DNA from: Escherichia phage vB_EcoM_EC001
Length of the DNA: 64,000 nucleotides
Reading direction: 5' to 3' (one strand)
Sequence record: MN445185.1
Part shown: one piece after another, positions 3,374 through 59,608 of the stretch
Position numbering within the stretch: position 1 is the stretch's first letter
How the letters are laid out: each line of letters begins with the position of its first letter
The notes under the pieces: generated by a model
Told to the model about the DNA's origin: nothing
The model's input: the letters and a program-made list of their open reading frames with translations, nothing else
Database searches by the model: none
Translations under genes and position numbers: made by a program

Positions 3374-3828
3374 CAGCGAAGTTAGAGGAATTAACACCCG
3401 ACTCATAATCGGATATTTCGACGGTTCGAATCCCTGCCACTTGCTCGCCCTATTTGTGTTATCCTTATCCCGAAGGCATTCGAAATAAGACGCGTATCCA
3501 CACACGGGTCAAGGATAACACGAACCACTTCCGCGGTCACCGTGTCCATTGCCGCCTACCTGCATGGGCTGTCCTCCGACACGGTGACTTCGGGCCAAAT
3601 TACAGACCAGGGCCGTTTGGGTTTTTCTTACGCATCCGTCCAGAGCCACCTCGAGCCCTGGTTTGTTCTCCCTTTTCTGTTCCTAGTTAGCCAACTAAAT
3701 CAATTAAGCCTGGTGCGTTGCCCTGGGAACAGAAAAACTTATTCGGTTACACACCGAACCCACCCACGAGGGATATGTCGTGGACTACCAATAGAAGCAG
3801 CAATAGTAGAAGTAAGAAGGAAAGCAAC

Positions 3829-4797: not shown

Positions 4798-4825
4798 CAC
4801 AGATAGATATTACCTAAGTGAGATG
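4798..4825. promoter_or_regulatory. conserved promoter-like motif copy 1 (cacAGATAGATATTACCTAAGTGAGATG)
   Basis: One of 7 dispersed copies; closest match to copy at 58724; sits about 50 nt upstream of ATG 4875. Confidence 0.45.
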
Positions 4826-16599: not shown

Positions 16600-16653
16600 G
16601 GCAGACTCCTTAGATTCCACATAGGAAGTCAGTCACAGTCAAAAATATCTCAG

Positions 16654-16667
16654 ATTGATATTATCTA
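16654..16667. promoter_or_regulatory. promoter-like palindromic motif copy 2 (GATTGATATTATCT)
   Basis: In divergent intergenic region between 15532..16599 (-) and 16806..18659 (+). Confidence 0.4.
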
Positions 16668-16747
16668 TGTGACAGTTCCTGAGAAATGTCTGGACTATGT
16701 GCCTTGTAAGTAAGCGACGGCATACTTGCATTCCATGGAATTACAGG

Positions 16748-16760
16748 CAGATATTATCTC
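16748..16760. promoter_or_regulatory. promoter-like palindromic motif copy 3 (GCAGATATTATCT)
   Basis: About 45 nt upstream of ATG 16806. Confidence 0.4.
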
Positions 16761-16805
16761 TGCGAACCGAACTATGATTGCAATCACTATTAAGGAATAT
16801 TTAAA

Positions 16806-24396: not shown

Positions 24397-24461
24397 GTTA
24401 AAATTTACGTTAGTGGGACATCATGTGTGAACCACTAGACTGCTTTTCCGAAAAGGATGAA

Positions 24462-25115: not shown

Positions 25116-25200
25116 GAAACAAAATAAAAAATACGCCCAAGGGAAACCTTGGGCTATTAACGCTTATGCGTGGTCCTGCAACACACACTGTAAGAAGATT

Positions 25201-25221
25201 GAGATAGATATTATCTCAGTG
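25201..25221. promoter_or_regulatory. promoter-like palindromic motif copy 4 (GAGATAGATATTATCTCAGTG)
   Basis: About 30 nt upstream of ATG 25251. Confidence 0.45.
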
Positions 25222-25250: not shown

Positions 25251-26885
25251 ATGAAAATTACGAAGATTAAAGACCGGATGACAATCGAGCATCACGGTCA
25301 AGAGGTCTCATTTATTGGCTTACGTTATCGGAAGGATAACAACGCACCCGACTACATCACTGTTAAAGGTAAACAGATTGCACGCGACAACATTCTCTTC
25401 ATGGAATTACAACGCGTGTGGGATTATTTAACGCCAGACGAACAAGATGAACTGTTCATGGCGTATCTGATGCTGGACGAGCTGGCAAACGAATCGACGG
25501 AAACGCAGCGTAAGCACATGCCGAAGATTGTGCAGACGATTGCGAAGTTCCACAAGGCCGAAGTGTATCGTAAGCTGTATCCCATCGATAAGCTGTGGAT
25601 TCCGCAGAACATGGAAGATACGCACGATGAAATGAACAGTAATTATCCGGAAGCGATGACGTACATTCGTCCGGACTATTACGAGTTGTTGATACTGGTC
25701 CTGATGATTAAACCGTATATTCCGGTGTTCCTTACCATGGGGACGTTCCCGATAGGTAAGAACTTGCCAATCGAAACACATCGGAAAATGGTGTACAATC
25801 TGACATACTGTCTGGAGATGCTTCAAGACACAGAAGTCATGTCTTTACCTGCTATTCCGAAACTGCGTGGGTTCCTACAGACAGTGATGGAAAAGGTAGA
25901 AAAAGAACTGGCAAACAAAGGTACGAACAGCACCAGTTTGTCGGTACTGGCTACGGTGCGGGGCTATGGCACGGATATGATGGAAGATTATATCCTGGCG
26001 TATGCTATTATTAAATTGTTGGCTGTCCGTGAAGTCGGTGGTGAATTACCGGTTGAAATCATGGTTAACAACAATATCGTCACCGGCATGTATTTTCTGG
26101 TTAAACAAGAGATTGAAACAGGTTTTGCAAACAAAATCTCTAACCAGCCGGTGCTGTTGAAAGCGCATCCAGAAAGTGTGGTATTCAATGGCGAAAAGGG
26201 CAAGATAAACGCCATGGATTTGGTGCAGGCACGTTCTCCTGCCCAGATGAAAGAATACGTCCGTACCGAGTACGTATTTAAAGAATACCGCTCTTTCTTG
26301 AAAACAATGCGTCTGGATAATGCCGCTCCAGCAGATGTTAAGTTATTGATTGATTCGCAACTGGCAACACACGACGGTCCTGTCTATACATTGCACGAAT
26401 GGTTAGTCGCATTAGCACTCCATCGTAGCGCGCATTATAAGACGTATACTGAATGTGGACCAGAAGCGTTTCGCTACGGTATGGCGTTGGCGCAGGCAAC
26501 TTATCTCAATTATGGAATGTATGACGTTGCGCAACTGTTAAGTTGCAATATGGTGCGTTCTGAGATGTCTGCCGGTTATGCAGCCGATCCAATTCGATCT
26601 GAACTCAAAGCAGATTTAGATAGATATTATCTTCAGGAGTATCGCAACCCGCGTAATCTCGAACCGCAATCTACACCACGGGAATCACTGACCTTGTTAC
26701 ACAAGGATCACATCAACCCGTATCTGTTCCATCTCAGGGCTACACCAGAAGCAGCTGCGCTGCTGAAGTGTGAGACGGATCAGCCAAACTATATACCTCA
26801 CTTGTCACTGCACAATAGCCTGGCGGAGTTTATGGTGTTGAATGCACGTCGCAAGTTAGAAGAAGTTGAATGGTTTAATTCTTAA
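25251..26885 (+). CDS. hypothetical protein
   Basis: 544-aa ORF downstream of promoter-like motif. Confidence 0.65.
   Translation: MKITKIKDRMTIEHHGQEVSFIGLRYRKDNNAPDYITVKGKQIARDNILFMELQRVWDYLTPDEQDELFMAYLMLDELANESTETQRKHMPKIVQTIAKFHKAEVYRKLYPIDKLWIPQNMEDTHDEMNSNYPEAMTYIRPDYYELLILVLMIKPYIPVFLTMGTFPIGKNLPIETHRKMVYNLTYCLEMLQDTEVMSLPAIPKLRGFLQTVMEKVEKELANKGTNSTSLSVLATVRGYGTDMMEDYILAYAIIKLLAVREVGGELPVEIMVNNNIVTGMYFLVKQEIETGFANKISNQPVLLKAHPESVVFNGEKGKINAMDLVQARSPAQMKEYVRTEYVFKEYRSFLKTMRLDNAAPADVKLLIDSQLATHDGPVYTLHEWLVALALHRSAHYKTYTECGPEAFRYGMALAQATYLNYGMYDVAQLLSCNMVRSEMSAGYAADPIRSELKADLDRYYLQEYRNPRNLEPQSTPRESLTLLHKDHINPYLFHLRATPEAAALLKCETDQPNYIPHLSLHNSLAEFMVLNARRKLEEVEWFNS
26612..26636. promoter_or_regulatory. 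promoter-like motif copy 5, internal to the 3-prime end of CDS 25251..26885
   Basis: AGATTTAGATAGATATTATCTTCAGG about 260 nt upstream of the next gene. Confidence 0.35.
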
Positions 26886-30360: not shown

Positions 30361-30383
30361 AGATAGATATTATCTTACCGAGG
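30361..30383. promoter_or_regulatory. promoter-like palindromic motif copy 6 (AGATAGATATTATCTTACCGAGG)
   Basis: Single copy between divergent genes 30016..30339 (-) and 30406..32643 (+). Confidence 0.45.
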
Positions 30384-34794: not shown

Positions 34795-37539
34795 ATGGTA
34801 GAAATTCAAATGACTTACACGAGTATGGGGGTACGGGTTGAAGTCCCTATCCGCCAGGCTGAAAGGGCCATACTCGCGTGGGCCGAAGAGAATATGCACG
34901 CCCCAAAGATGGGCAAGCAACATGGACGAATAACTACGGAACGCGGTGACGCGTACTACGCCCACATTCCGTCTTTAAGGACGTTCATTTTCCATAAAGT
35001 GTTCGCTGAGAAGATTAAACATATCCTCCAACGAGCAGCAATTGAATATGCTTTTCAGTACAAGCTTACAGAGCACCATCCTGAGCGAGGAACACCTTAC
35101 TGCTGTACATTTGATAACTACGGCTTCTCGATGGTAGAAAGCGATCCGGAGTCGCGTTTCTACTATCAGAACGAGGTTGTGGATGCAGCGTCCGATCCAA
35201 ACCGACCACAGACAATCTTTGCCATTCAGACAGGGAGAGGAAAATGCTGTGCTCATGGTACGCGTGTGCGTGTACCGGGTGGTTGGAAGAACATTGAGGA
35301 TATACAGCTAGGTGATTACGTTACGGGGCGTGACGGAAAACCAGCAATGGTCTCTGGAGTGTTCCCACAGGGTGTGGTTGACCTGTATCAGGTGACGTTT
35401 TGGGATGGTAGGAGTGTTGACGTATGTGGCGAGCACTTGTGGCAAAGCTACTACGTTAATACCACCGAGAATCGTCGCTGGGGTGTACGTGATACCCTAG
35501 AGATGAAACGTTTAATTTCGATGCCTAATCCACGGGTATACATCCCATTACCAGAACCAGAGGAAATGCCAGCTAAGGATTTTGTCATTCATCCGTATTT
35601 ACTCGGTATCCTCTTGGGTGATGGCTCCCTATCGATGCCTGGTGTTTTATACACCAAAGGCGATGTGGAGATTCGTGACCGTGTTGCTGAGGTCATGCCC
35701 GCTGGACATGCAATCCATGATTCATCGTACAGCGATGGGATAACGAAGTGCATCTCTTGTCCCGGCGGTGTTAACCTTGTCCGCAGAGAGCTTGAGCGGT
35801 TAGGGTTAATTGGCTGCAGGTCTTGGGAAAAGTTCATACCTGGAGATTACTTCGAAACGTCCATCGAACAACGGTGGGAGTTGTTGCGTGGCTTGATGGA
35901 TACTGACGGTACTGTGGATAAGGATGGTGGTACGCCTTCTTTCTGTTCCACCAGTAAAGAATTGGCTTTAGGTGTTCAGGAACTTGTGCGGTCTTTAGGA
36001 GGGATTGCAACACTACGCGAGAAACGTCCGTTCTTCACACACAACGGCGAACGTCGTGAAGGTCGTTTGGCTTATAACGTCTCCATCCGCCACAAAACAC
36101 CATCGAAACTGTTCCACCTTCCAAGGAAGAAAGAACTGTGTCGTGATAACGGACAATACACCGATATACTGAAACTCCGTGTTAAGTCTATCGAACCCAT
36201 TGGTCGTGATCTTGCCACGTGTATTCGTGTCGAGAACGACGATGCGTTGTTTGTGGTGGACAAGTGGATCGTTACGCACAACACCAAGACCTGTATGAAG
36301 TCGATGGTTAAACGGGGAACCCGTACCGCATTGATTCACCGTCCGTCGTACGTTCCCAAATGGCTGTTTGACGTCTGTGATGATGAAACAGGACTTCGTA
36401 TACTTCGTGACGAGGTGTTAGTTTGTACAGGCGTACAGGCGATTTACGACGCGCTGGAGATGGGTAAGTCGGGAGAGCTAGATAGTCGTGGTATTAAGGT
36501 AATAATCCTCCCCACGGTCTCTCTACAGCGTTTCCTGAAGGAGTACATTAACACTGCTGCGACTAACCCTGTGGACCTGGATACGTTTTATGATGTTCTG
36601 GGTGTGGGTCTGGTGGCGATGGATGAGGTGCACGAGCATTTTCACCTCGTTTACATGGCTGGTATAATGTTGAACCCTCCGGCATCGATAGAGATGTCTG
36701 CAACCCTTAAGCCGGGTAGCAGTAAAGCCTTTATCGCGGAGCGGTATTTAGAACGTTTCCCAATGGAGTACCGAATCAGTATTCCAATCATTCCGGTGGT
36801 TGACGTGAAGGCGTTGTACTATCGACTGGATGATAAGAAGTTTGCGTGGTGGGCGTCGAAGATGACGCCGTATAACCACAAGCTCTTCGAAGGGAAGCTG
36901 ATTAAAGAGAACTTGCATTTAGAATACGCGAACATGATCTGGGATGTGGTTGAGAAATCGTTCCTTAAACGGTATCAACCTGGCCAAAAATGTTTGATAC
37001 TCTTTGCTACGGTAGCGATGTGTGAGTTCTTTACCGAGTATGTGAAAGATAAGTTATCGCGTGACCCTGTATTCCATCCGTTGATGGTGGCGAAATATAA
37101 TGCAGGCGATTCGTATGACGACTTTATCCAAGCAGACTTCTCTATCTCCACACCGGGGAAAGCGGGGACTGCGGTCGATAAACCTGGGTTGGTACACATG
37201 TACATTTCAACCCCGGTAGAAGACCAGCAACTGAACGAACAGATGGCCGGTCGTCCACGTAAGATTCTCCACAACGAATGGGGTGAAATAGACCCAACGG
37301 TGTGGTTATTCCATGCGTATAACGTACCGAAGCATTGCAATTACCTGAATGCCCGCCAGAAATCACTCAAGGATGTCGTATTGTCGTTCCGTATCGCGAC
37401 ATCCCCCTACGTTGTAAGGAAATCACATGCTCACTCCGCCGCGTCCAGCAGAGCCGCTGCCACCCTACATCGGAATGACTTTAGCAAGTTTTCTCGAAAA
37501 CGTTCTAAAGGCGTATCCCGGCGTAGAAGACGTCGCTAA
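34795..37539 (+). CDS. SF2 (DExH-box) helicase interrupted by an intein in the Walker A motif; 3-prime end uncertain
   Basis: Start at ATG with GAGGGG RBS (track ORF 34738). Extein motifs: P-loop GRGK-[intein]-TKT, DEVHEH, SAT, QMAGRPRK. Basic C-terminal tail overlaps the next ORF. Confidence 0.65.
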   Translation: MVEIQMTYTSMGVRVEVPIRQAERAILAWAEENMHAPKMGKQHGRITTERGDAYYAHIPSLRTFIFHKVFAEKIKHILQRAAIEYAFQYKLTEHHPERGTPYCCTFDNYGFSMVESDPESRFYYQNEVVDAASDPNRPQTIFAIQTGRGKCCAHGTRVRVPGGWKNIEDIQLGDYVTGRDGKPAMVSGVFPQGVVDLYQVTFWDGRSVDVCGEHLWQSYYVNTTENRRWGVRDTLEMKRLISMPNPRVYIPLPEPEEMPAKDFVIHPYLLGILLGDGSLSMPGVLYTKGDVEIRDRVAEVMPAGHAIHDSSYSDGITKCISCPGGVNLVRRELERLGLIGCRSWEKFIPGDYFETSIEQRWELLRGLMDTDGTVDKDGGTPSFCSTSKELALGVQELVRSLGGIATLREKRPFFTHNGERREGRLAYNVSIRHKTPSKLFHLPRKKELCRDNGQYTDILKLRVKSIEPIGRDLATCIRVENDDALFVVDKWIVTHNTKTCMKSMVKRGTRTALIHRPSYVPKWLFDVCDDETGLRILRDEVLVCTGVQAIYDALEMGKSGELDSRGIKVIILPTVSLQRFLKEYINTAATNPVDLDTFYDVLGVGLVAMDEVHEHFHLVYMAGIMLNPPASIEMSATLKPGSSKAFIAERYLERFPMEYRISIPIIPVVDVKALYYRLDDKKFAWWASKMTPYNHKLFEGKLIKENLHLEYANMIWDVVEKSFLKRYQPGQKCLILFATVAMCEFFTEYVKDKLSRDPVFHPLMVAKYNAGDSYDDFIQADFSISTPGKAGTAVDKPGLVHMYISTPVEDQQLNEQMAGRPRKILHNEWGEIDPTVWLFHAYNVPKHCNYLNARQKSLKDVVLSFRIATSPYVVRKSHAHSAASSRAAATLHRNDFSKFSRKRSKGVSRRRRRR
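35245..36282 (+). mobile_element. intein (346 aa) with double-motif LAGLIDADG homing endonuclease
   Basis: Begins CCAHGTRVRVPGG...IEDIQLGDYV directly after P-loop GK; contains LLGILLGDGSL and LRGLMDTDGTV; ends VVDKWIVTHN followed by Thr. Predicted spliced P-loop is GRGKTKT. Confidence 0.7.
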
Positions 37540-37810
37540 GAAACTCTGCACCGACGCCACTATCAACCAAGCGTTTCATTACTACATGGTCACTGAACAT
37601 TACAGTGGCCTGTTCCTTAACCAACGCGGGTTGACGTATTACGTCACCCGCACGTCAAGTATCCGTAACACTTCGTCGTACGAGCTTTATACGTACGTGT
37701 TGTGGAATGAGAACCCGGCCGGTAGTGTCGATCAGAATCCAAAGATGGCTTATCGTCTTTACTCTGAAAAATGGCACGATTGGGTGACTGTTCCACACGA
37801 TGCAAGTTAA
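37475..37810 (+). CDS. hypothetical protein (start uncertain)
   Basis: Internal ATG (MTLASFLEN) of track ORF 37427..37810, which overlaps the helicase 3-prime end. Confidence 0.4.
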   Translation: MTLASFLENVLKAYPGVEDVAKKLCTDATINQAFHYYMVTEHYSGLFLNQRGLTYYVTRTSSIRNTSSYELYTYVLWNENPAGSVDQNPKMAYRLYSEKWHDWVTVPHDAS

Positions 37811-37870
37811 TCACGTTTTGGGTGTATATTGTGTATACACCCAACCCCTAATTTCAAAAGGATTATTACG

Positions 37871-38491
37871 ATGAGTCGTCGCAAAAAGAAACCCGCTTAT
37901 AACCCACGTAAAGACGCCCGCGATTTCGTCAAGGCGATGATGCAGTCTGTGTTGAAAAAACAAGCTGTGTTTATCGAAAGTACCGAATTCCTGTCAGGCA
38001 GAATTGATCGGGAGCGTGAAGTAACTGAAGCCATTACGCACGAAGAGCTGAAAGCCTTTACGTTGAAAGCGCTGGATGAAGCACAGGCGGCTTTCCTTGG
38101 CATGTGTCAGCAAGGCAAAGAGCTGTTCGGTAAACTGATTGTTGAGGCAGATGCTAAGGCTGTGCCGGTGTTTGACATGCTGAACGATAACAGCAAAACG
38201 TGGAAAGAAATCAAAGACCAGTTCCACGTCGACCACACCGAACTGTCCCTGATTGACCAGCGGGCAAACATGCTTGCGATGGATATTCAGGGCACCAGTA
38301 TCGAAATCTTCTCCACGTATAACGCGAAAGTGAAGTTCGTGAAGCAGGCGCTGAATAACGGGCATACCGTGGAACAAGCCGAAGTTCTGTTGGCTGAAGC
38401 TCTGGCTAATAATTCGAAGGAACTCCCTAAAAACGCCATCGTCGATCACAACGACGTTGTAGTAGAAACCGAGGAAGCGGCACATGTCTGA
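37871..38491 (+). CDS. hypothetical protein
   Basis: Internal ATG (MSRRKKKPAYN) of track ORF 37829..38491 with AAAGGA RBS. Confidence 0.55.
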   Translation: MSRRKKKPAYNPRKDARDFVKAMMQSVLKKQAVFIESTEFLSGRIDREREVTEAITHEELKAFTLKALDEAQAAFLGMCQQGKELFGKLIVEADAKAVPVFDMLNDNSKTWKEIKDQFHVDHTELSLIDQRANMLAMDIQGTSIEIFSTYNAKVKFVKQALNNGHTVEQAEVLLAEALANNSKELPKNAIVDHNDVVVETEEAAHV

Positions 38492-40454
38492 GATCCAAGA
38501 TCAGCGTCCGGGTAATGCCCGTCGCCCTAATCCCGACCAGCCAGCCCCTGTGGCGGCTGCTACCCAACAAGAGATGATTCTTCCGACCGTGCCTGATGAC
38601 GCGACCTCGGATGCAATCATCATGGCTATTAAACAAGCCAATCCCGATTTTTCTTTTGCCCGTGCAGAAGAAGTTTATCACCAACACTATCATCGTCCGG
38701 AGCCTAAGCTTGAGCGTCCGACGTTTGTAGAAGAGGCGTTGCCTGAACCTGCTGCACCTGTACCACCGGCACCTCAGACTTTTGCTGAACAGGTGCAGGA
38801 GCACCTACATCGTGCCCCGGAACCGGTAGTAGAGAAAGCGCCTACGGTAGAACCTGCTCCGCAGCCAAAAGCTCCGGAAGCGGTTGCACCGGCACAGCCG
38901 GCTGTAAAAGAAATGGAAGATGCAGCACCGAAGGTTCCGGAACAACAACAGATGCGTGAGATTGACTTCGGTAATACCCATTTAGCTGAAACCGCCGAAA
39001 TGGGTGAAGATGAAGCCGATCGTATTCTGACACAGTCGAAGATGTTGATTGGTCTGAAACAAGACCCTAACATCATTGCAGACTCCCTGCAAAAGTTCCT
39101 CGGTAATATTAAACGTTCACCGAAAGACGGCCGGCTGCTATTCGAAAGCCCTGAACAGCAACAGGTTTACGACGACATCTATCGTGCTTTGAACATGACC
39201 CCGCCACGTCTACAGGACGGCGTACCGGCATTCGCGGGTGCACTGGACCGTGGTGATACCGCTTGGGAACAGCGTGTGATGTTGCCGGACGGCAAGGCAT
39301 CTGGTGCTATTGCACCGCGTGACAATATGCACACTGGCGCGCTGGCTGCCTTACGTCGTGTACGTAAGTCGGGTATTCCGAACATGGTTTGGTTGCCGGC
39401 CACAGGTATCTACGTGGGCTTCCGCGCACCGCACGAACGTGACCTTTGTGACTTCGACATGCGTCTAACGCTGGAAACTGCGACCATCGGTATGCAGACC
39501 TACGGATTGATGCTGTCGTCGTCTTCTGGCGTGTACATGCGCCACATGGTTGAATTCGCACTTCAGTTTGTTACCGAAGCAACCATCGATTGTGCGGGTA
39601 ACGATCTGCGTACGGTGCTGTTGGATACCATTGATCTGGCTGACTACTGGCTGGTTATTCTGGGTCCGTTGCAGGCGAAGTGGCCGTCTGGTATTCCATG
39701 GACGCTGATGTGTGGCGAAGACGGTTGCAACCAGCAGGAAGATGTGAAGCTGAACATCGCGCGTTGTATCCGTTTCGGTTCCGGACTGTTTAGCGACCTG
39801 CAGAAACAACTGTGGGCACGTCAACGCGGTACTGAGCGTCCAGTGATTTCTATTGCAGAACAGCGCGAATATATCGCGGCGCATCAGGTTGATCCGTCCT
39901 CGGTATTTGAATACCACGACGTGCGTGTTGAATTTGGCCGTTCCACCCTGGGTAGCTTCTTTGACTCCACCGAGAAGTGGATTGAAGACGTTAACGCGTC
40001 AACTACGGCAGCGCTGTCTGAATTTGCTACCGAGCGTGAACGTGAATCCCATATGCGTTTAACTGCGGAAGCCCGTCGCTTAACGCGTTACGCTCACATG
40101 GTGAAGTCTATCACTGTTAATGAGCAACGTGAAGTAAACGGTGAAATGCAGGTTATCCCACAAACTGAAACCGACACAGCGAAAATCGTTGAGATGCTGG
40201 AAGAGCTGTCTTCCGACCGTATCTACGTTGGTCAGTTTGAAAACGCGATTGCTGAATACAACGAACGTACACGTTTAGCGGTATTCGGTTACATGGGTAA
40301 ACGCTGCCCGGCGTGTGGTAAAACACACGGCGAGAAAGACGGTCTGTATCGCGGTATTGTTACCATCAGTCCGGACAGGGTTTTTTTCGTGCTCTCTCGA
40401 GTGGTGTCCGAGATTCAGAAATTCTTGCTGGATCAATACGCCGATATTGGCTAG
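38484..40454 (+). CDS. hypothetical protein with proline-rich PAPE-repeat N-terminal region and single CxxC near the C-terminus
   Basis: 656-aa ORF, host-like codon usage; low-complexity Pro/Ala/Glu-rich N-terminal segment (about residues 80-140) with repeated PAP/PEP units; later CPACGKTHG. Confidence 0.6.
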   Translation: MSEIQDQRPGNARRPNPDQPAPVAAATQQEMILPTVPDDATSDAIIMAIKQANPDFSFARAEEVYHQHYHRPEPKLERPTFVEEALPEPAAPVPPAPQTFAEQVQEHLHRAPEPVVEKAPTVEPAPQPKAPEAVAPAQPAVKEMEDAAPKVPEQQQMREIDFGNTHLAETAEMGEDEADRILTQSKMLIGLKQDPNIIADSLQKFLGNIKRSPKDGRLLFESPEQQQVYDDIYRALNMTPPRLQDGVPAFAGALDRGDTAWEQRVMLPDGKASGAIAPRDNMHTGALAALRRVRKSGIPNMVWLPATGIYVGFRAPHERDLCDFDMRLTLETATIGMQTYGLMLSSSSGVYMRHMVEFALQFVTEATIDCAGNDLRTVLLDTIDLADYWLVILGPLQAKWPSGIPWTLMCGEDGCNQQEDVKLNIARCIRFGSGLFSDLQKQLWARQRGTERPVISIAEQREYIAAHQVDPSSVFEYHDVRVEFGRSTLGSFFDSTEKWIEDVNASTTAALSEFATERERESHMRLTAEARRLTRYAHMVKSITVNEQREVNGEMQVIPQTETDTAKIVEMLEELSSDRIYVGQFENAIAEYNERTRLAVFGYMGKRCPACGKTHGEKDGLYRGIVTISPDRVFFVLSRVVSEIQKFLLDQYADIG

Positions 40455-40498
40455 ACCAGGAAGACGTTCCGTCCGAGCAAATCATTACAACGCTCAAG

Positions 40499-40870
40499 AT
40501 GGATACCACCTCTCTCTTCAAGCAGCGTAGCACACGTCCTATTACGTATCAGGAAGCCCATAACGAGCTTCTGGAAGCGTATGACCGTACACTGGCTCTT
40601 AATACCGGCGACCATCAGGTAGGGTTGTCGGATTTTGAAAACCCGGTATACGGTAGTCTTTACGATATCTGGTACGCCACTTACTTACGTGAAGAGGTCG
40701 GTGAAAACTACCGGATGTCGATAGACGAGTTCCTCGACCGTCCCCGCTGGCAGATACTGCTGATGCTCGACAATATCCGTCGTCGCAAAGCGATTATCGC
40801 CAAAGCCGGCGAACAGGTGGCAGGTGAACGTGCGCTAAAGGAGCTGGAGAAAGATCTGACGGGACATTAA
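40499..40870 (+). CDS. hypothetical protein
   Basis: 123-aa ORF followed by terminator. Confidence 0.5.
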   Translation: MDTTSLFKQRSTRPITYQEAHNELLEAYDRTLALNTGDHQVGLSDFENPVYGSLYDIWYATYLREEVGENYRMSIDEFLDRPRWQILLMLDNIRRRKAIIAKAGEQVAGERALKELEKDLTGH

Positions 40871-40879
40871 TAGAAATTC

Positions 40880-40908
40880 GGGGCTTCGGCCCCGTTTTCT
40901 TTTTTTTA
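40880..40908 (+). terminator. intrinsic terminator (ggggcttcggcccc plus T-run)
   Basis: Hairpin plus long T-run. Confidence 0.6.
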
Positions 40909-40923
40909 TTCGCCTTGGTATGA

Positions 40924-41808
40924 ATGCCCTTTTCACTATGGAACAGAGCCATGATTGATATTTATACCGACTATGCGGCTGTATTGACAGTCAACCGTCA
41001 CGAAGGTCGTGCAGCACCGATGCTAGATTTAGTGACGCTCGGTATGGATTACGGTTACGATGTGGCGTTATCCGATGTTTATAGCAACCCGTTGTCTGAC
41101 CCCGCGGACGAAACTGTCCGTCTGGAATCCATTATCGTGAAGGTAGCGGTTGGATTAGGCAACCGCCTCGGTATCGGACTTAATCCACAAATCGTCTTCC
41201 AGAAACCGAAAGAAACCGTACGTATCCTTCACGGTGTGTTGGAAGCCTTCGAGGAGTTCGAAGACAGTGATGCCCTTTACGGGATTGTCTCCTCTGGTGA
41301 GACACCAGAGTATATCCTGGAGAACATGTGTCGTTATGTTTACGGTGACGAAAACCTGCACTTCGAAGACCTGATTACTGTTGTCAGCCCACGCGTGCTT
41401 ACCGTGATGGAGAACTTCTTAGCAGCAGAGTCGTTGGAAAGCCAGAAACGAAACGGCGACGACGAGCGTCAACAGCGTATCGTCGCTTACTTGCGGTTGT
41501 TCCCTGAGAACCCGTCAGCGTTTGTCTTTATGAATCTGCCTGCTGAGCCAGACTTAACGGTGGTGCAGCAGTCGTTAGAGTTTCGCGTAGAGGACATTAG
41601 CGAAATTGATTTGCTGACGATGTATGCGGTGGGCTTATCGATTATTCCTCATGCGGAGTTTGATGGGGCTTACGGTGACTTAGAAAAGAACCTTGCCCTG
41701 TTGAACGTCGACAACGTCCCGCCTGGAGAAATCTTGCGGAAAGGATTGGAAGCGTTGAAAGTCATATACGCTAGTGGGGACGCGGAGGTAGATGATGAAC
41801 AAGATTGA
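40924..41808 (+). CDS. hypothetical protein (start may be 40951)
   Basis: 294-aa ORF; alternative in-frame ATG at 40951. Confidence 0.5.
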   Translation: MPFSLWNRAMIDIYTDYAAVLTVNRHEGRAAPMLDLVTLGMDYGYDVALSDVYSNPLSDPADETVRLESIIVKVAVGLGNRLGIGLNPQIVFQKPKETVRILHGVLEAFEEFEDSDALYGIVSSGETPEYILENMCRYVYGDENLHFEDLITVVSPRVLTVMENFLAAESLESQKRNGDDERQQRIVAYLRLFPENPSAFVFMNLPAEPDLTVVQQSLEFRVEDISEIDLLTMYAVGLSIIPHAEFDGAYGDLEKNLALLNVDNVPPGEILRKGLEALKVIYASGDAEVDDEQD

Positions 41809-43090
41809 CTATCTGGTCGCTGCGTGTAAAGCAGAAGCTTGGCGTAGACTGGTGTGGCGTATTGCGGTTTTCAACGTGGCAATCTTTAATGAAAAAGGTG
41901 AGCCACCTGAGCAATACGACCTGAACTATATTGACGGCTTGCCCCACTACTGGGAAAACGAAGAAATTAAATGGGTGCCGATTGAAGGGTGCAAAAAAGA
42001 TGAAGAGCTGTTCGTGCCAGAAGAGCAGTTTGAATTGCGTCCTGAGATGTACCCAGGTTTAGCTGGTCCCATTCCGACTACCGTGGGTCGCTATGTCTTT
42101 AACTGGATTGCTATCTATTACGCTTTCGGTACCCGTCTCCCGTATCTGGCAGAGTCTCGTGACCCACTAGCCTACCGTAAAGAGATGTATGAGCGTTGTG
42201 TGGAATATGATGACAGCGATCCAGACAACGAAGACGCGATTCGACCGTACATGATAGGACGCTTTGTAGGGGGTCTACACGAGCTTGCTCCGTTGTGTCG
42301 TGGGATTGCCCCAACAGGAACTATTAGAAGCCTTACAACGCATCCTGACGCGTATAAGGTACGAGATGCGTTGCTGTTGAAGCACAAAGACGAACTGGAT
42401 AACCCTGCGGTTATCGTTATGATTGAAAAAGCTCTCGATGAACTTGATAAAGAGTGGTTGAGTGGCGACCAGTCCGTTGAGTTCTACAGCTCTCCTAAAG
42501 CGCGTATGCGTCGCCGTAAGCTGATGCTGATGTACGGTATTCAGACCGCTTTTAAAGAAGGTGCAGATTTTACCTTAATCCCAACGAGCCTGATGGAAGT
42601 TGATCAGACCGGGATGAAGTATCTGGTAGAGAAATTCAATGATACGCGAGAAGGTTCCTTCATGCGTGGTGCAGAAACTGCCAAGGGCGGGGAGCAAGTA
42701 CGTATCATCCAGATGATCTTCCAGAACCACAAAATCGTGCCTGGTGATTGCGGGACAAAACTGACACATGCAGTTGTAATTAACCAGTATAACTACAAGC
42801 GTTATGTTGGCATGAACGCGATGGTTAACGGTAAAGTTACCCAACTCACCGAAGAGTATTTGAAAACGCAATTTGGTAAAGTTGTTCGACTCCGCCGACC
42901 CATCTTATGTCAGCAAGGTCACGTAGACTGTTGTGCGGCGTGCTCCTCTGCACACAAAGCAGAAGAGCCACGGGCAATCGCTGCGGATATCTCTTCCGGC
43001 TTCTCGAACGTTATGACCACTGCAATGGGTGCGATGCACGGTCGTGAAACCGTGGTTAAAGAGTACATCCCTAAATTCCACATCACCTAA
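41792..43090 (+). CDS. hypothetical protein
   Basis: 432-aa ORF overlapping previous gene end. Confidence 0.55.
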   Translation: MMNKIDYLVAACKAEAWRRLVWRIAVFNVAIFNEKGEPPEQYDLNYIDGLPHYWENEEIKWVPIEGCKKDEELFVPEEQFELRPEMYPGLAGPIPTTVGRYVFNWIAIYYAFGTRLPYLAESRDPLAYRKEMYERCVEYDDSDPDNEDAIRPYMIGRFVGGLHELAPLCRGIAPTGTIRSLTTHPDAYKVRDALLLKHKDELDNPAVIVMIEKALDELDKEWLSGDQSVEFYSSPKARMRRRKLMLMYGIQTAFKEGADFTLIPTSLMEVDQTGMKYLVEKFNDTREGSFMRGAETAKGGEQVRIIQMIFQNHKIVPGDCGTKLTHAVVINQYNYKRYVGMNAMVNGKVTQLTEEYLKTQFGKVVRLRRPILCQQGHVDCCAACSSAHKAEEPRAIAADISSGFSNVMTTAMGAMHGRETVVKEYIPKFHIT

Positions 43091-55981: not shown

Positions 55982-56037
55982 GGGGGCCCCTTATCTAGGG
56001 GCGTGTAATTGGGTTATAACCAAAGGAACCGAAACAA

Positions 56038-57315: not shown

Positions 57316-57392
57316 TCCGCTTTACGTACCAAACGTCGGTTGACAAATCATTAATGGCGGTACACGGCGTACCGCCTAGAGGATAGAAAAAG

Positions 57393-58723: not shown

Positions 58724-58750
58724 TCAGATATATATTACCTAGGTGAGATT
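58724..58750. promoter_or_regulatory. promoter-like motif copy 7 (CAGATATATATTACCTAGGTGAGATTG)
   Basis: Nearly identical to copy 1 over TATTACCTA(A/G)GTGAGAT; about 40 nt upstream of ATG 58789. Confidence 0.45.
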
Positions 58751-59550: not shown

Positions 59551-59608
59551 ATATTACGTTAGCCCGAAACCGTATGTAATCGACCATTAATCTTAAGGAG
59601 TATTTATA

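Follow-up and report, generated by a model that had tools for sequence, protein, structure and literature searches.

On a modest balance of probability, the palindrome at 37818-37844 is the core of a phiKZ 'middle'-type promoter that is combined with a terminator-like hairpin lacking a T-run. The window, i.e. the whole 64,000-nucleotide stretch of Escherichia phage vB_EcoM_EC001 that was analysed (MN445185.1), carries at this position a bipartite motif with strict spacing. The motif is enriched in intergenic DNA and conserved among related phages, and its locus is homologous to that of the phiKZ promoter P78M. From the sequences we infer the promoter activity, the exact start site, the 'middle' timing and the role of the hairpin. 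A 3'-end or stability role of the hairpin on read-through RNA is plausible, and an RNA role of the hairpin taken by itself is possible, though somewhat short of probable.

The element alone is an ordinary regulatory signal, and its kind of promoter is already known from the phiKZ middle class. It bears on promoter recognition in phiKZ-like phages, whose known consensus for middle and late promoters comprises only 4-9 bases, and its relevance lies mainly within the field of jumbo-phage transcription. phiKZ, SPN3US and the Erwinia and Cronobacter jumbo phages share the layout of TTAC, 14 bases and T[A/G]TG at exactly the same spacing, and a search with the motif provides some 20-30 candidate sites in each genome that can be tested. 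SPN3US is a genetically tractable Salmonella phage. At two loci, moreover, a hairpin around the start site has been kept by evolution while the sequence of its stem changed.

Palindrome and its transcription unit

A stop codon at 37808-37810 and an ATG at 37871 bound the 60-nt gap that holds the palindrome, and the hairpin starts 7 nt 3' of this stop codon. The palindrome was initially annotated as a 9-bp inverted repeat, GGGTGTATA-TTGTG-TATACACCC, at 37820-37842. This repeat is present as described, and the perfect pairing runs two pairs further on each side to give an 11-bp stem, TTGGGTGTATA-TTGTG-TATACACCCAA, with arms at 37818-37828 and 37834-37844 and a 5-nt loop, TTGTG, at 37829-37833. 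Folded as DNA (39 nt), the palindrome reaches -9.8 kcal/mol (z = -4.7), a value equalled by none of 200 shuffled sequences, and an RNA fold spanning it (70 nt) reaches -17.7 kcal/mol (z = -2.4). When perfectly paired hairpins with a stem of at least 11 bp and a loop of 3-9 nt are counted, the window contains 3 against 0.1 expected from Markov-1 shuffles, and the remaining two are canonical T-run terminators.

The 12 bases 3' of the stem are CCCCTAATTTCA. Because the T-run is absent, as the first-pass annotation had noted, the palindrome is not a canonical intrinsic terminator; its accompanying judgement that intrinsic termination is unlikely agrees with a terminator scan that is silent at the palindrome. 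The structure does resemble an intrinsic terminator in that the stop codon is followed at once by a stable stem-loop, in a phage that has many canonical terminators. It differs from them in the missing U-run, in having only 4 G-C pairs out of 11 with an AT-rich stem top, and in its 5-nt loop, the terminators of this phage having TTCG-type tetraloops.

Searches for other known signals at the element were negative. No sigma-70 promoter with a -35/-10 spacing of 16-18 nt was matched on the plus strand, and the minus strand gives a weak match (9/12). The covariance models of Rfam 15 yield no real match, with CRISPR-DR35 at chance level (E = 0.48, below its gathering score). The early-promoter consensus AGATAGATATTAyCT is not found at the element, which shares only ATATT with it. 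No further copy of the palindrome or of its core occurs in the window or in the 240-kb SPN3US genome, each of which holds a single occurrence, and a repeated operator or REP-like palindrome is ruled out by this uniqueness.

Around the element, the sequence matches Salmonella phage SPN3US and related Seoulvirus phages at 97-99% identity; SPN3US-like phages are phiKZ-related jumbo phages that encode their own multisubunit RNA polymerases. All parts of the element and its unit lie on the plus strand. The element begins directly after the stop codon TAA (37808-37810, invariant in the 14-region alignment) of an upstream small ORF. The putative upstream promoter element, TCACG (37811-37815, predicted -22 to -18), has one mismatch to TTAC and corresponds to TTACC of P78M and to TTACG of most sibling sites described below. 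The left arm of the palindrome (37818-37828) occupies part of the N14 spacer together with the first bases of the conserved core TATATTGTG (37825-37833), which ends in TGTG (37830-37833). By analogy with phiKZ TATG, where +1 is G, we predict the start site to be G37833 (35403 in SPN3US), the last base of the loop, and the right arm (37834-37844), which pairs with the left arm, would then form +2 to +12 of the new transcript. The predicted 5' UTR of 38 nt leads to the Shine-Dalgarno sequence AAAGGA (37857-37862) and the start codon ATG (37871-37873). The transcription unit (37871-40870) comprises three genes encoding proteins of 206, 656 and 123 aa, homologues of SPN3US gp228, gp227 and gp226, and is closed by a canonical terminator, GGGGC-TTCG-GCCCC followed by a T-run, at 40880-40907.

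We also considered whether the RNA-polymerase subunit gene at 41792-43090 belongs to the operon of the predicted promoter. Since the terminator at 40880-40907 intervenes, the gene was placed outside this unit. Directly after the terminator, a late-type TATG (GGTATGAATG, 40916-40926) precedes the start codon at 40924 by 3 nt, and a transcript from it may be nearly leaderless.

On the upstream side, the small ORF (37427-37810, with a provisional start) is a homologue of SPN3US gp229 (PHROG 9835). It overlaps the 3' end of the helicase gene by 113 nt (37427-37539) in another frame, an overlap that is annotated in several relatives as well. The helicase tail is Arg-rich (…SRRRRRR), and a frameshift is conceivable at the overlap. 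The helicase gene itself (34795-37539) encodes 914-933 aa here as against 568 aa in SPN3US. LAGLIDADG and Hint (homing-endonuclease intein) domains are matched by the additional residues, indicating that the helicase of this phage carries an intein that is lacking in SPN3US. The helicase of phage Kwan is likewise long.

A class of bipartite motifs in SPN3US-like phages

Inspection of all intergenic regions of SPN3US reveals three recurring signals. The first is the early-promoter motif AGATAGATATTAyCT, the second a late-like (A/T)GTATGAC, and the third a bipartite signal composed of a T-rich stretch with TTACG, a spacer, and then TAT..TGTG or TATG. We evaluated the third signal with an untrained expression, T[TC]AC[GA]-N14-T[GA]TG. 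With the spacer varied from 10 to 19 bases, the SPN3US genome gives 44 matches at a spacing of 14 and 7-12 at each of the other spacings. As many as 19 of the 44 are intergenic, compared with 0-3 at other spacings (binomial P = 7e-14, taking intergenic DNA as 5% of the SPN3US genome), and 17 of these 19 have a gene start within 120 nt ahead. The window behaves similarly, with 12 matches at a spacing of 14 and 0-4 at the others. When a position matrix was trained without the present site, the site ranked 12th of 480,758 positions.

The class extends beyond the genus. Erwinia phage Wellington belongs to a different genus, and in 150 kb of its genome the spacings 14 and 15 are the enriched ones, with 6 of 13 and 6 of 12 matches, respectively, being intergenic. 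The SPN3US-trained matrix places 8 of its 12 top matches on the same 150 kb in intergenic DNA. The site upstream of the thymidylate kinase gene is conserved in position in Wellington.

Most sibling sites lie directly 3' of canonical terminators, in gaps that contain neither the early-promoter motif nor another promoter motif, which is a location where a promoter must be. The usual order within such a gap is terminator hairpin, T-run, TTACG, N14 and TATG. On the plus strand of the window, siblings of the form TTACG-N14-TATG are found at 59554-59576, where the intergenic site points at the next gene, and at 330-352, also intergenic. A TTACA-N14-TATG occupies the intergenic positions 938-960 upstream of the gene starting at 985, and a TTACG-N14-TGTG is located at 24405-24427. 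The last falls on a 26-nt gap (24397-24422) with its predicted start just after the called ATG at 24423, so it is possible that this start codon has been mis-assigned. Relative to its commonest siblings, the present element has TCACG rather than TTACG and TGTG rather than TATG, and it has no upstream T-rich stretch.

Correspondence with the phiKZ middle promoter P78M

The middle promoters of phiKZ carry AAanTTACc at about -24; in P78M this element is AAAATTACC, and TATG is also present at +1 (PMC4666361). P78M drives gp78-gp77 and was mapped experimentally by Ceyssens et al. (2014), as cited by Yakunina et al. (2015, PMC4666361). At the late promoters of phiKZ, every position of TATG is required by the non-virion RNA polymerase (nvRNAP) in vitro, and the same enzyme, in purified form, does not use the phiKZ middle promoters in vitro (PMC4666361).

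Our comparison with phiKZ is based on one promoter, P78M. Upstream of gp78, phiKZ has AAAATTACC-N14-TATG, so that the layout TTACC-N14-TATG has the same spacing as the SPN3US class. The locus is homologous too: phiKZ gp77 is related to the 656-aa protein encoded by the second downstream gene (BLASTP E = 9e-23 over 475 aa), and the neighbourhood of RNA-polymerase subunits and helicase is syntenic between the two phages. No sequence similarity is detectable between gp78 and the 206-aa protein. A scan of spacings for TTAC-N-T[AG]TG across 50 kb of phiKZ shows no peak, although it is underpowered; the genome is AT-rich and the sites are few.

The present element and P78M are alike in several respects. 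Both are bipartite, with a TTAC-type element about 20 nt upstream, here TCACG, then a spacer of exactly 14 bases and T(A/G)TG, here TGTG, at the same fixed distance with a G start, which in our case is predicted. Both stand upstream of a gene pair whose second member belongs to the gp77 family, and both phages transcribe with their own split-subunit RNA polymerases. The differences are that P78M combines TTACC with TATG whereas TCACG is combined with TGTG here, that the flank 5' of TTAC is A-rich (AAAA) in phiKZ and T-rich or neutral in SPN3US-like phages, and that P78M has no palindrome. In addition, activity and timing have been mapped for P78M, according to the secondary account cited above, whereas here they are predicted. 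Given the motif matches in the orthologues together with the spacing and locus homology of P78M, we take the element to be the equivalent of P78M in this phage.

Conservation across orthologous gaps

The orthologous gap was taken from 17 phages of five genera, across which the downstream proteins compared are only 27-57% identical. The expression [TA][TAC]AC[ACG]-N14-T[AG]TG has exactly one match in 16 of the 17 gaps, 32-47 nt before the ATG, and the variants of the upstream element include TTACA, TAACG and AAACA. When 14 of the gaps are aligned with MAFFT, the non-coding stretch from the stop codon to the ribosome-binding site contains just three invariant columns, T37832, G37833 and T37834.

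The first-pass annotation had proposed conservation in related genomes as a check, and the palindrome proves to be conserved, but only in Seoulvirus and Erskinevirus. In these two genera the 23-nt core GGGTGTATAWTGTGTATACACCC is essentially invariant while the downstream protein is only 44-57% identical, and the right arm TATACACCCAA is identical. In Machinavirus and Wellingtonvirus, the left half and the loop are kept (GTATATTGTG, GATATAATGTG, GTATATGGTGTG) and the right arm is no longer complementary; the hairpin at this locus is weak or absent there, with the TTAC-like element, the N14 spacing and TGTG retained. Derbicusvirus has an unrelated hairpin, GGGGGACAT-loop-ATGTCCCCC, at the same position relative to the motif. 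Since the motif is kept across genera while the stems vary, the sequence motif is the oldest feature, and the hairpin is recurrent but replaceable. The hairpin is nonetheless maintained by selection, being identical in Seoulvirus and Erskinevirus and represented by a different stem at the same place in Derbicusvirus.

One close relative departs from this pattern. Phage Lh1B, which infects E. coli, carries G37833 -> T and A37839 -> C, so that T[GA]TG no longer matches and the stem is left with one pair fewer. The two changes fall within 7 bases, and the rest of the 136-nt stretch is identical except for a common SNP at 37854. They may represent a sequencing error, relaxed constraint or adaptive retuning.

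More distant orthologues were sought by scanning viral contigs twice, and the sole matches were SPN3US and a near-duplicate of phiKZ. For Machinavirus, we also considered a long-range RNA structure that would pair a coding GGGTGAC with GTCACCC after the motif; it gains no support, as the covariation term of RNAalifold is positive (a penalty) and there is only one compensatory pair.

Hairpins around other predicted start sites

At SPN3US 144280 on the minus strand, a second member of the class has its TATG in the loop of a hairpin whose 10-bp stem is perfectly paired. The stop codon of a virion gene immediately precedes this site, and a conserved 57-aa ORF that lacks annotation follows downstream. 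This ORF (SPN3US 144050-144220, minus strand) shows 46-82% identity across the genera in which it is matched. The orthologues of the 144280 site in Huxley, Wellington and EarlPhillipIV carry T[TA]AC[GA]-N14/15-TATG inside hairpins, and the start-in-loop stems of SPN3US and these three phages, which represent four genera, all differ from one another. In Huxley, the hairpin has a G-T wobble and runs into TTTTTTT, and in this form it resembles a normal RNA terminator.

A hairpin as a general property of the class was rejected, because only 2-4 members have one. Most members of the class and P78M itself lack a hairpin, which is therefore not required for the class.

The hairpin promoters of phage N4 offer a further comparison. 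They are read by a single-subunit virion RNA polymerase, and their hairpin, with a stem of 5-7 bp and a loop of 3 nt, has its centre some 12 nt 5' of the start. Like them, the present element would be a phage-polymerase promoter with an inverted repeat able to form a DNA hairpin; it differs in its 11-bp stem, in the position of the start within the loop, and in that the hairpin is not found throughout the class.

Proposed mechanism and alternative explanations

In the mechanism that we propose, one of the phage's own multisubunit RNA polymerases would read a promoter composed of TCACG (37811-37815), the 14-base spacer and TGTG (37830-37833). Transcription would begin at G37833 and drive the three genes at 37871-40870. 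The spacer, as the left arm, appears to be kept complementary to the first 11 transcribed bases, the right arm, and this complementarity places the putative start site in the loop of a hairpin. New transcripts would start in the loop and could not form the hairpin; pairing of the arms would be confined to read-through transcripts from upstream and to DNA that is single-stranded or extruded. Read-through RNA from the helicase and gp229 genes would fold the hairpin and be either ended there, as at a terminator without a T-run, or protected at its 3' end. Termination by these polymerases would in the former case proceed without a T-run. The 60-nt gap may thus pack the end of one unit and the start of the next, the terminator hairpin having possibly slid onto the promoter where gaps are short. 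A transcript boundary is expected at the element; our literature search returned no map of transcript ends or start sites for SPN3US-like phages.

With respect to the initial interpretation of the palindrome, the rejection of a canonical terminator was right, as was the attention to conservation and to a transcript boundary, and the function that is best supported here, a promoter for a phage polymerase, had been missed. The idea of a protein-binding palindrome holds as far as a binder is concerned, most likely RNA polymerase, and is unlikely to hold for a dimeric regulator, given that the stem is replaced in other genera and occurs once per genome.

It is conceivable, albeit unlikely, that the element acts purely at the level of RNA, as a T-run-less terminator, a pause site or a 3'-end stabiliser of the helicase/gp229 transcript, and that the promoter match is incidental. 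The stability of the stem and its location 7 nt after the stop codon would agree with such a role, as would the T-run and G-T wobble of Huxley at the second locus. T-run-less intergenic hairpins are, moreover, common in SPN3US, where 44 of 71 perfect stems of at least 7 bp do not pass a strict criterion for a T-run, in several cases by a clear margin. However, Machinavirus and Wellingtonvirus lose the hairpin and keep the TTAC-like element, N14 and TGTG, while the spacing and intergenic enrichment of the class are independent of hairpins. The orthology of the site with P78M and the lack of an Rfam match also speak against a purely RNA element.

A slightly less likely explanation, attractive in view of the way such polymerases engage their consensus, places the hairpin in the DNA: the palindrome would be extruded on supercoiled or single-stranded DNA and present T[GA]TG in single-stranded form to the phage polymerase. 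The start motif lies in the loop or at its edge at two loci, and the stems have changed in sequence but kept their pairing across genera; because the stem is perfectly Watson-Crick paired, it would form on both strands. The nvRNAP of phiKZ is described as holding the TATG consensus in a pocket of an open-promoter analogue (PMC12809450), and that of AR9 can start specifically on single-stranded DNA (PMC7598289). Against this, most members of the class and P78M have no palindrome, and the G-T wobble and T-run of Huxley at the second locus fit RNA better. Broader still, and improbable in our estimation, is the idea that a subset of jumbo-phage middle promoters is structure-assisted, with a DNA hairpin showing T(A/G)TG in its loop and the same palindrome terminating incoming RNA. 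If true, such promoters would explain the specificity of a 4-base consensus and tie promoter use to supercoiling or replication.

An operator, in which a dimeric regulator of phage or host origin would bind the 11-5-11 dyad to turn the promoter on or off, seems decidedly improbable. The dyad is perfect, centred on the predicted start and invariant across two genera, yet neither the window nor the 240-kb SPN3US genome has more than a single copy of its sequence, and other genera either keep the symmetry with an unrelated stem or lose it, which is the signature of a structure. The replacement of the stem by unrelated sequence and the single genome copy thus make a sequence-specific operator unlikely. 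Finally, a chance palindrome without function is hardly credible: although the self-complementarity of TATA gives 4 of the 11 pairs for free and Lh1B tolerates two changes, only 0.1 such hairpins are expected per window, and the flanking proteins have diverged to 44-57% identity around an element that does not vary.

Other elements of the window

The AT-rich motif AGATAGATATTAyCT can be taken with near certainty as the consensus of the early promoters, those of the virion RNA polymerase, in this phage group. It occurs at 4801-4814, 25202-25215, 26618-26631, 30361-30374 and 58726-58739, with two looser copies within 16600-16805; the copy at 26618 is inside a predicted gene.

G+C-rich intergenic hairpins without a T-run are also present at 57356-57376 and 55982-56037, between late (internal head protein) genes, and may be leaky terminators or mRNA stabilisers. 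Another hairpin, GCCCAAGG-GAAA-CCTTGGGC at 25135-25154, has an A-run before it and no T-run after it. Both of its neighbouring genes are on the plus strand, and it looks like a terminator for antisense transcription. The window also contains a tRNA-Trp (CCA) gene at 2141-2216, and tRNA-like 3' ends are possibly present near 3409-3453 as well.
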